This document shows, piece after piece, positions 35,688 through 38,928 of a stretch of 64,000 nt of DNA. Under the pieces are notes generated by a model that was given only the letters and a program-made list of their open reading frames with translations, searched no databases and was not told the DNA's origin. The DNA lies in IMG/VR virus record IMGVR_UViG_2700989507_000006; one strand, 5' to 3'. The translations under genes and the position numbers were made by a program. This DNA comes from a virus (taxonomy: Duplodnaviria > Heunggongvirae > Uroviricota > Caudoviricetes). Positions within the stretch are counted from its first letter, which is position 1, and each line of letters starts with the position of its first letter.

Positions 35688-37097
35688 TTAACCTATTGCT
35701 ACTGGTTTTAACAAACCAGCATCAAGTAGCTTGCGAGTTAACCACTGCTGGCCTTTACCCGTTAATTGGGGCGTCAGCCGTATCTGATAGCCATTTTCAT
35801 CATCCAGCACCACTTCTTTCACCGTGAAATACCCGGCGTTGATGTACTGTTGGCGCGGTACGTTTTTGCGCGCACCAAAAGCCATGAGAATGCCGTTCTG
35901 GCGCAACCATGAGAAAAGGGCGTTTTGCTTAAGTCCAACGACCTTTGCAAAGTTCCCGATCAGGATTCCATTAGCCACTGATACCCGATCGGCAAAATCG
36001 ACTTTAGGGGCTGCGGCCACCAGCTGCTGATTTAGCTGGTGGGTTTTCTGTTCCAGTAGCTGCTTTTGTTCAGCCAGCTCGGCAGCCAGGCGCAGAGCTT
36101 CGGGAAGCGTCTGGGGGATTGCGACCGGTTGCTGTTCTTTTTGCCGGAAGTAGCTGTCTTCCAGTTTTTCAAAGAATGCCCACGCTTGCTCTGTGTCTAC
36201 GATCTTAGACATGCGTGCCGCTCCGCGTTCGGTCCAGAGTATTAAGGATCTGGTCTTGGGGGAAATTTGCAGCTCGCTAAAAGATAGTCGCAAACTTTTT
36301 ATCTCATCTCCTTTGATTTTAAAGAAGTGTTTACCCTCTACAAATCGTTCTTCATTGCGATTGTAGTTCTGCTGAATACGAATAGGTGTAGTGCCATACC
36401 CTCTAGCAAGAGTCTCGGTTGTCACGACGCGTACTCCCTGCCATTCCAGAACGGGAATTTCATCAGGCTGATTTTCAACATTTATAGGTTCCAATGACTG
36501 AATCATGGTATGTAGCGAACGGCGGACCGCTTTTGACTCGCGCGCGGCGACTCGCAGGGCTTGTTTGTAGGTCATGGTTATGACAACCATAGGCGTACCA
36601 CCACCTGGCGGCACGGTTGCACTTTTTGTGTAACCGTCCTCACCTTCTAATTCGTCGAGTATTTTTTCGATGAATTTGTTGTTCCGAACCTCTGGTTCCC
36701 CACATAACTTACGCGCTTCATTGACCATCTTTAACAGTGTCTGGCTGTCGATTGTGTCTCCGGTGGTGGGGATGACATTCACGGCTGGTGCTGGCGTTGC
36801 TGAAGCAACAGGTGCTGGTTTTTTAACATTCAAATTATTACTGGTCATTCTATGTGCCTCCTTTCTCATTTCTGCTGCCACCGTTGCGTAACGTAGACGT
36901 CCTTGTTCAATCAAATAATCCCTGATCTCGGCTATCAGTAGCCTGTTGATCACAGCCTTATCTGTTCGGGTATAAAAACGTCTGGTTATCATGAAATAGT
37001 TGGCAATTGCGCCGGGGATCTCCCGTGTCGGCACACAGGCAGTATGCAGGGCGATCGCTTCGGCTATGTCATTACGGGTGACGAGAGGTTTTTTCAT
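35688..37097 (-). CDS. ant: antirepressor (Bro-N/ANT-like plus KilA-C domain)
   Basis: 469-aa ORF; start overlaps icd stop in ATGA; C-terminus paralogous to KilA C-terminus. Confidence 0.7.
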   Translation of the reverse strand: MKKPLVTRNDIAEAIALHTACVPTREIPGAIANYFMITRRFYTRTDKAVINRLLIAEIRDYLIEQGRLRYATVAAEMRKEAHRMTSNNLNVKKPAPVASATPAPAVNVIPTTGDTIDSQTLLKMVNEARKLCGEPEVRNNKFIEKILDELEGEDGYTKSATVPPGGGTPMVVITMTYKQALRVAARESKAVRRSLHTMIQSLEPINVENQPDEIPVLEWQGVRVVTTETLARGYGTTPIRIQQNYNRNEERFVEGKHFFKIKGDEIKSLRLSFSELQISPKTRSLILWTERGAARMSKIVDTEQAWAFFEKLEDSYFRQKEQQPVAIPQTLPEALRLAAELAEQKQLLEQKTHQLNQQLVAAAPKVDFADRVSVANGILIGNFAKVVGLKQNALFSWLRQNGILMAFGARKNVPRQQYINAGYFTVKEVVLDDENGYQIRLTPQLTGKGQQWLTRKLLDAGLLKPVAIG

Positions 37098-37629: not shown

Positions 37630-37646
37630 AAATTTATTAGAGCATT
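37630..37646 (-). promoter_or_regulatory. C1-repressor operator (AATGCTCTAATAAATTT)
   Basis: 16/17 match; upstream of c4-icd-ant. Confidence 0.6.
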
Positions 37647-37715
37647 ATATGCTTAATAAATACACAATTGGATCTAATAACCTCTTTTTTTTAAAGGCGA
37701 AAATATGTACCCTAA

Positions 37716-38390
37716 ATGAGTTATAAGGCAGGTGAGGTTATAATGAGAAAACTATTACTACCGTTATTATTTATGGCTGGGACTGTTAATGCAGCATCAA
37801 GCGTAAAGGAGATTTGTACCGATTATACGAAATACCTTGGGCACGTTTACGGCTTTGCTGTCAGTCAAGACGAATCCATGCGCAAGAAGTTACTGTCAGA
37901 TATGAAACGCCTTAAACTTTCTGAAGCGATGGTGCAGCAAGAACTGTATAAAGTCGCAACCAACGAAAATGCTAAATATCAATATTCTCGCCTGTTAAAT
38001 CCCGACGCAAACGAGATCAATCGAAGCTCTTTCGATTATATGGTAAAGGCATGCGAAACCGCTCCTGATTTTGCTATCCCTAGCTGGGGTGTGCTGGTGG
38101 CGAGCAATGCCGTTAATAAAGAAGACGTTGGAAGAAACGGCATTGATTCAATCAGAAACGCCCCGGGAATGCGCCATCAAAACGTGCAGGGTACGCTTGA
38201 AGAGCGGGCCAGGGGGCCGGGTACAAACTCCCCAATGGGAAACCTCTCACCAGAGGAATTGCAAGAGTATAACCAACGGATGGAGCAGTATGAGAAAGCG
38301 GCACGCGAACAAATGGAACAACAAAAGAACGGCTCACTTAATACCTTCCAGCAAGGTTTAAAAGCGCTTAATTTACCCTATGAATGGTAA
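37716..38390 (+). CDS. signal-peptide periplasmic protein (superinfection-exclusion Sim-type candidate)
   Basis: 224 aa; signal peptide MRKLLLPLLFMAGTVNAAS; contains PGMRHQNVQGTLEERARGPGT motif also present in the tape-measure/transglycosylase. Confidence 0.5.
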   Translation: MSYKAGEVIMRKLLLPLLFMAGTVNAASSVKEICTDYTKYLGHVYGFAVSQDESMRKKLLSDMKRLKLSEAMVQQELYKVATNENAKYQYSRLLNPDANEINRSSFDYMVKACETAPDFAIPSWGVLVASNAVNKEDVGRNGIDSIRNAPGMRHQNVQGTLEERARGPGTNSPMGNLSPEELQEYNQRMEQYEKAAREQMEQQKNGSLNTFQQGLKALNLPYEW

Positions 38391-38451: not shown

Positions 38452-38928
38452 ATGCGCATCAAACGATTTTTTCTAATTCTTGCTTTGCTTACTCCATTTT
38501 CATCAATGGCAAATGTAAGCAAATGGTCAACCGGCGAGACTCATGGTGTTCGTTCTTATGCTGTTTCCAGCAAAGATAATTATACGCTTACATTTGAGTG
38601 CGATGTTGGATTTAATAATACGGATCCCAATCAAGTAGGAACACGACTACTCACTCTCATGAAAACAGAACCTGGCGGTGAGTCATTTGATGCTAAAAAA
38701 GAACAAATAACGCTGAAAGTTGGTGATGATGAATATCCTATCAGTTCTATCGGTTCCTCTGTGGGTGATAGTTACTGGTATGGTTTTTGGTCAGATACCC
38801 CTGATATGGAAGTTAAAACATTCGATGCATACGTAGACGGAAAAAAAATCGCAACATTTACGCTACGTAAGGCCGCAGAGCTTTTCAACGCGGCACCTGA
38901 AGATGGCTGCCTGAAGCGCGCAAAATGA
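38452..38928 (+). CDS. secreted protein with signal peptide
   Basis: 158 aa; MRIKRFFLILALLTPFSSMANVS signal sequence. Confidence 0.5.
   Translation: MRIKRFFLILALLTPFSSMANVSKWSTGETHGVRSYAVSSKDNYTLTFECDVGFNNTDPNQVGTRLLTLMKTEPGGESFDAKKEQITLKVGDDEYPISSIGSSVGDSYWYGFWSDTPDMEVKTFDAYVDGKKIATFTLRKAAELFNAAPEDGCLKRAK

Follow-up and report, generated by a model that had tools for sequence, protein, structure and literature searches.

The passage of the genome of contractile-tailed phages like P1 through the periplasm and the inner membrane is poorly understood. Several phages encode an envelope protein that is proposed to stop genome delivery by an incoming phage via its tape measure, as described for the exclusion proteins T4 Imm, HK97 gp15 and TP-J34 Ltp. 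All three are membrane-embedded or lipid-anchored tape-measure binders. A different target is represented by T4 Sp, a periplasm-facing exclusion factor that acts against the cell-wall-degrading part of the incoming tail by inhibiting the tail lysozyme gp5. In P1 itself, the SimC protein is reportedly processed and exported, and it is said to exclude superinfecting phage after adsorption. The protein described here is comparable with Imm, gp15 and Ltp in its proposed point of attack and with Sp in facing the periplasm, although it has no homology to Sp. It differs from the former three in that it is predicted to be soluble, with a cleavable signal peptide only, and in that it contains a copy of a tape-measure segment, which has been reported for none of them. 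Exclusion proteins acting on tape-measure-mediated entry are already known. A secreted protein carrying a tape-measure segment was found nowhere in the literature searched, which is likewise silent on the shared motif and on exclusion proteins of a decoy type.

The window, that is, the whole stretch of 64,000 nt that was analysed (IMG/VR virus record IMGVR_UViG_2700989507_000006), belongs to the P1 family. The 8 kb around the open reading frame of interest are 98% identical to Escherichia phage vB_EcoM-Ro157c2YLVW (Ro157) and about 97-99% identical to phages P1 and P7 across 84-87% of these 8 kb; what is not common to P1 and P7 is exactly the interval from c4 to pmgC. The gene order is kilA, ant, icd and c4 on the minus strand, followed by the simA-like gene, a 158-aa open reading frame, pmgC, tub, pmgB, sit, pmgA and bplA. 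By synteny with P1, the simA-like gene therefore sits in the sim (superimmunity) locus, which extends from c4/Op51 to pmgC/LPsit. This slot is occupied by simA-simB-simC in P1, by upf50.5-upf50.0 in P7, and by two other open reading frames with signal peptides in the window and in Ro157; it corresponds to the hypervariable 'region 4' cassette of P1-like phage-plasmids (PMC9603915). The simA-like gene adjoins a C1 operator, lies upstream of the late promoter region and is not part of the late operon. The operator sequence AAATTTATTAGAGCATT is the same in P1 and is kept even in Cronobacter phage JK004, as seen in the alignment. The coordinates of all features are compiled in Table 1.

Table 1. 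Features of the sim locus and of sit in the window (positions in nt of the window).
Feature	Position	Strand	Remarks
C1 repressor operator (equivalent of P1 Oc4/Op51)	37631..37647	none	AAATTTATTAGAGCATT; separates the simA-like gene from the divergent c4-icd-ant operon
Predicted PsimA promoter (P1 annotation)	~37652-37678		after the C1 operator
Full-length simA-like gene	37743..38390	+	215-aa precursor; phrog_3933, E=6e-137
Signal peptide	37743..37793	+	MRKLLLPLLFMAGTVNA; Sec-type; signal peptidase I site VNA/AS; by sequence inspection
Orphan all-helical N-domain	37794..38132 (aa 18-130)	+	invariant C25, C104 and IPSW motif
Sit-like module in flexible linker	38142..38246 (aa 134-168)	+	IDSIRNAPGMRHQNVQGTLEERARGPGTNSPMGNL
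Glu/Gln-rich long C-terminal helix	38250..38366 (aa 170-208)	+	AF2 helix, pLDDT 60-77
Companion gene, 158-aa secreted protein	38452..38928	+	phrog_3429; relatives have Pfam YfjT (PF27224)
sit, tape-measure protein with lytic transglycosylase domain	41153..44545	+	1130 aa; phrog_2533; PF01464 SLT at aa 748-857, E=9e-27
Sit module copy 1	43955..44059 (aa 935-969)	+	VNKFMNGRGMRREVVQGTLEERARGKGTATAAGNV; ~85 aa past the SLT domain
Sit module copy 2, partial	44156..44200 (aa 1002-1016)	+	LFDKLRNSPGMRKNN

A preliminary description of the sequence had labelled the simA-like protein as Sim-type and considered it as the possible exclusion protein, a premise that is wrong in detail: the characterised Sim of P1 is SimC (264 aa), to which the simA-like protein has no similarity, and the profile of the simA-like family finds no SimC-like protein. 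The two have in common the slot between c4 and pmgC, a signal peptide, export (by prediction in the case of the window protein) and the stage of action after adsorption and before DNA entry (proposed for the window protein). However, they do not resemble each other in sequence, SimC has no segment in common with Sit, and SimC alone of the two has experimental support for exclusion. An identity with Upf50.0/DUF5384 or Upf50.5 of P7 was likewise rejected, as these represent different cassettes.

The true counterpart in P1 is SimA (gp043, 52 aa), annotated as 'putative superimmunity accessory function'. Its first ~45 residues including the signal peptide are near-identical to the window protein, the upstream DNA with the C1 operator and PsimA is essentially identical to the window, and the locus and the orientation are the same (window 37716-37871 compared with positions 2213-2371 of the P1 locus, L001). 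P1 SimA is a stub, however: its 52 codons run up to the start of the simB-simC cassette, and the body of the N-domain, the module and the tail are missing. Because the ~45 residues and the upstream DNA match, and divergence sets in at codon ~45-55, at the junction where simB starts, the P1 simA gene is a 5' remnant, the body of which has been replaced by simB-simC, and the window gene is the intact, ancestral gene of this locus. P1 simA is accordingly to be annotated as a gene remnant instead of an 'accessory' gene; its truncated origin from a widespread 215-aa gene appears to be absent from the annotations seen.

The open reading frame at 37716-38390 (224 aa) is the longest reading frame of this gene. 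The ATG at 37743, rather than 37716, is most likely its true start, since a Shine-Dalgarno motif (GGTGAGG) is located 6 nt upstream and the same start is found in Ro157 and in all homologues. In the signal peptide, N16 and A17 are invariant throughout the family, and residues 1-15 have pLDDT values below 50. Sequence inspection revealed no lipobox, transmembrane helix or Cys at +1, in keeping with the prediction of a soluble, helical mature protein. Export is supported by the signal peptide and by the two invariant cysteines. The N-domain is highly conserved and is the best-folded part of the protein (aa ~20-130, pLDDT >90 in the AF2 model); no relatives were detected by sequence or fold in Pfam, NCBIfam, PADLOC and fold comparison. 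The tails downstream of the module are mosaic in relatives, where a coiled-coil-like helix, a small module with a Cys pair, or a shortened or absent tail was observed. Alleles of 163-179 aa, which stop a few residues past the module, are common, so that the N-domain plus the module looks like the functional unit. Two other assignments of the simA-like protein were rejected. One is a known defence family, for which PADLOC and NCBIfam gave no match. The other is a PTP-like phytase (PF14566), which scored 26.5 bits compared with a cutoff of 27, matched profile positions 47-132 only and covers aa 34-118 of the 224-aa open reading frame; family members in the protein database have the same match among their precomputed annotations. 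As the catalytic Cys-x5-Arg (HCxxGxxR) loop is missing, this is probably a spurious helical match.

The assignment of the downstream gene to a Sit-type tape measure/transglycosylase was borne out by the SLT domain, the full-length match to phrog_2533, the length of more than 1000 aa, and the position in the order pmgB-sit-pmgA within the tail/baseplate operon. Annotation and synteny of sit agree in P1, P7 and Ro157. Sit is also supported by the literature (PMC9024508), and it is unresolved in the cryo-EM structure of P1 (PMC12810830). The first Sit copy of the module is strongly conserved: every Sit homologue that was inspected, even one with an identity of 37%, has the pattern G-M-R..V..G....R-A.G.G. 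In the AF2 models, the linker with the module in the simA-like protein (aa 140-170) has a pLDDT of ~45, with a sole short helix at 152-157 (TLEERA), and Sit copy 1 has a pLDDT of ~30, low values that may partly reflect the shallow alignments behind the two models (21 and 10 sequences). The module is thus predicted to be flexible or disordered in both proteins.

The peptides PGMRHQNVQGTLEERARGPGT (nt 38163-38225) in the simA-like protein and GMRREVVQGTLEERARGKGT (nt 43979-44038) in Sit, from which the preliminary description started, are located exactly at these positions. The run VQGTLEERARG is the same in both proteins, and eight of the 33 nucleotides that encode it differ, all eight of them synonymously. 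The proposed motif of 11 residues is therefore real, but the similarity is longer than had been recognised: it forms a module of ~35 residues, from phi-x-N-x-x-G-M-R through G-N-[LV]. Four approaches argue against a chance match. First, BLASTP aligned the simA-like protein to Sit with 23 identities in 47 positions (E=7e-9). Second, the PHROG profile of each of the two families detects the other protein at exactly the module (E=8.6e-8 and 3e-4). Third, seven SimA-like module sequences, and none from Sit, were used to build an HMM; when this was applied to 1134 six-frame segments of the window, Sit copy 1 was its sole match (44.5 bits, E=5.9e-13), with Sit copy 2 as a weak secondary domain. Fourth, the full-length family profile yielded 14 matches among 1.84e9 representative proteins; 13 are family members or fragments, and the only non-family match is a 1081-aa Sit homologue, hit at residues 937-979 (E=6.5e-5). 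In addition, tblastn with the module-bearing third of the simA-like protein directly matched a Salmonella Sit gene (E=7e-7). Obviously, the likeness of the module in the simA-like protein and in Sit is real and beyond chance. It is also specific to this pair: no third family and no host protein with the module was found at significant score among the 1.84e9 representatives, none of the other open reading frames of the window contains it, and of the products encoded in the slot, the simA-like protein alone has sequence in common with Sit, whereas SimB, SimC, the Upf50.x proteins, the 158-aa protein and the SH3 proteins of related cassettes have none.

The weaker second copy that had been noted in Sit is indeed present, as LRNSPGMRKNN (Sit aa 1006-1016, nt ~44168-44200), yet taken alone it reaches only marginal significance (BLASTP E=0.033; HMM domain i-E 0.23). 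It is situated inside an insertion of ~60 aa (window 44060-44240, Sit aa ~970-1030) that was observed in the E. coli P1-type Sit only and is missing from the Salmonella, Klebsiella and Cronobacter-type Sit. Copy 2 is thus a lineage-specific, partial internal duplication. Most of the proteins found in a word-seeded search for homologues of the C-terminal part of Sit were partial, and apart from P0040 the search contributed little.

The view that the shared peptide is under selection and does not reflect a recent DNA duplication was upheld by a comparison of the two copies in five genomes, which gave pS values of 0.71-1.0, that is, saturation, versus pN values of 0.26-0.32. Between orthologues, the module has pN values of 0.16-0.43, again with saturated pS. 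The saturated dS rules out that the simA-like gene and sit have recently undergone duplication or gene conversion, and the combination of saturated synonymous sites with a low pN indicates an ancient module that is maintained by purifying selection. The most divergent family member, P0045, keeps 17 of the 23 module residues at an overall identity of 42%, and its protein stops 14 aa past the motif core GMR...GT. Most simply, the module is homologous in both genes, and that of the simA-like gene would be a captured piece of an ancestral sit. A comparison of the SimA-like and Sit modules of the same genomes gave no convincing sign of co-variation: the sum of the cognate identities equalled the permutation maximum, a value that is reached by six of the 120 permutations and comes from only ~4 independent lineages; P0045, with contigs of ~1 kb, was outside this comparison.

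Long selection on a copy kept by a prophage protein marks the corresponding Sit segment as functionally important. We tentatively propose that the simA-like protein could be a superinfection-exclusion factor that acts at genome delivery by competition of the modules. Exclusion by mimicry of Sit is favoured because the protein carries an export signal, its gene occupies the slot of the P1 exclusion gene, neighbours the immunity operator and lies outside the late operon, and its copy of the Sit segment is under selection; these grounds are entirely those of position, export and homology. We infer that the gene would be expressed from the prophage, giving rise to a Sec-exported, soluble periplasmic protein that would display, on a flexible tether, its copy of the module that follows the transglycosylase domain in Sit. 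After contraction, T4 releases the C-terminal part of its tape measure to the periplasm, and it is this part that Imm binds (bioRxiv 10.64898/2026.03.06.709160). By analogy, the post-SLT region of Sit is expected to be the first part that emerges into the periplasm when the incoming tail contracts. The displayed module might then compete with that of Sit for a partner, inferred to belong to the host envelope or to be another Sit chain or the end of the tube, and the infection would stall after adsorption, at genome delivery. The mimicry could thus take the form of competition for the partner of the module or of co-assembly with Sit. To our knowledge, no partner of the Sit module has been described, from the host or otherwise. 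The competition suggested in the preliminary description is accordingly plausible and still the leading hypothesis. It is rather doubtful at present that the simA-like protein will turn out to be the first superinfection-exclusion factor that mimics a tape measure, with the post-SLT module of Sit as a key element of P1 genome entry. A pure decoy leaves the role of the well-conserved N-domain unexplained. Moreover, P1 itself and many relatives have lost the body of the simA gene, which shows that the gene is dispensable.

The N-domain is central to one alternative, which we regard as unlikely: it may bind incoming Sit directly, in which case the module would be a pseudo-ligand in cis, or the module may co-assemble in a Sit oligomer as an oligomerisation element. 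Direct binding would be in line with the conservation and confident folding of the N-domain and with the well-studied exclusion proteins of this stage, all of which bind the tape measure directly, and co-assembly would be in line with the oligomeric nature of tape measures. However, the AF2 monomer model does not dock the module on the N-domain, and no sequence or fold similarity of the window protein to the known tape-measure binders Imm, gp15 and Ltp was found.

Equally, there is little reason to expect that the module is an envelope-targeting element, used by both proteins to contact peptidoglycan or a periplasmic chaperone or as a site of protease processing, without any role in exclusion. 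The simA-like protein would then have another job, for example, in lysogenic conversion or envelope modification. Both proteins act in or reach the periplasm, the Sit module comes after the peptidoglycan-cleaving domain, and the tape-measure-dependent entry of HK97 reportedly requires a periplasmic chaperone, all of which would fit such an element. Yet a general targeting motif that reaches a significant score in just two families among 1.84e9 proteins would be unusual, and Pfam, NCBIfam and PADLOC gave no match.

It is improbable that the simA-like protein inhibits the transglycosylase of Sit, as T4 Sp does with the gp5 lysozyme; here, the module would interact with the SLT domain, with an autoregulatory effect within Sit and an inhibitory one in trans from the secreted protein. 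AF2 modelled the SLT domain of Sit 730-1130 with confidence, and no packing of the module on it was seen, in a part of the model that has low confidence and a shallow alignment. Finally, a functionless relic, that is, a sit fragment caught by illegitimate recombination in a neighbouring gene, might be considered for two genes 3.4 kb apart in a recombination-prone mosaic region, but is hardly credible given that, despite the saturated synonymous sites, the key residues do not vary among the members from E. coli, Salmonella, Klebsiella and metagenomes, and that P0045 conserves the module better than the whole protein.

If the mimicry of Sit is true, it would represent a new mechanism of superinfection exclusion, with a decoy rather than a binder, and it would explain the cassette of about a quarter of the P1-like phage-plasmids, a group of elements that is important for carrying antibiotic-resistance genes in Enterobacteriaceae. 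The simA-like protein also offers a genetic handle on P1 genome entry.

The simA-like family is very small, and its members come solely from P1-like elements of Enterobacteriaceae. Clustering at 90% identity gave 28 clusters among 5.8e9 proteins; the family has 14 representatives, including the Sit match, among the 1.84e9 and is annotated everywhere as 'hypothetical protein' or 'simA domain protein'. The module-bearing gene is present in 123 of the 475 P1-type plasmids of PLSDB (about a quarter), and ~140 more plasmids have the stub only. The stub alone accounts for about half of the P1-like plasmids with a match to the gene. The gene was also found in 96 of 5426 complete E. coli genomes.

Within the family, N-x-x-G-M-R is nearly invariant, and the sequence that follows it defines two classes. 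Class A has x-V-x-G-[TS]-[LM]-x-x-R-A-x-G-x-G at this place, resembling Sit copy 1, and has the invariant module residues N139, M143, R144, Q146, G150, L152, R155, A156 and G158. Class B, exemplified by Cronobacter phage JK004, continues with Q-P-S-x-x-S and is nearer to Sit copy 2. Absence of the motif from homologues had been named in the preliminary description as an observation that would refute its proposal. The G-M-R core is in fact kept down to 42% identity, whereas VQGTLEERARG is missing in class B, which keeps only N-x-x-G-M-R, so that this run is not a universal element.

The companion gene for a 158-aa protein with a signal peptide adjoins the simA-like gene in all seven of the related loci with a motif-bearing simA-like gene that were inspected. 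These include E. coli, Salmonella, Klebsiella aerogenes and Cronobacter phage JK004, and the companion is sometimes cut to 92 aa. The two genes may work as a module. In NZ_LR890336 (L005, 8704-10662) and NZ_CP038288 (L007, 8581-10258), extra cassette genes are located between the simA-like gene and pmgC; they encode a polytopic membrane protein of ~116 aa and a protein of 344-389 aa with a C-terminal SH3 domain. The presence of such genes in the cassettes of relatives supports the notion that the slot collects envelope-directed accessory genes.

Among the relatives of window 38071-38361 and 43971-44231, several database proteins (P0008, P0021, P0038, P0043 and P0048) are chimeras in which a frameshift joins the simA-like or sit frame to its +1 frame; in P0038, for example, the Sit frame switches into the frame of the window open reading frame 43971-44231. 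Most likely, these chimeras do not represent alternative products but stem from pseudogenes or from errors in sequencing or assembly. Upstream of the sim locus, the Ant1 antirepressor (35688-37097, minus strand) has 469 aa in the window versus 347 aa in P1. The flanks of the window protein are 81-84% identical to P1 Ant1, with an ORF6N domain (PF10543, aa 216-299) as a central insertion between them.
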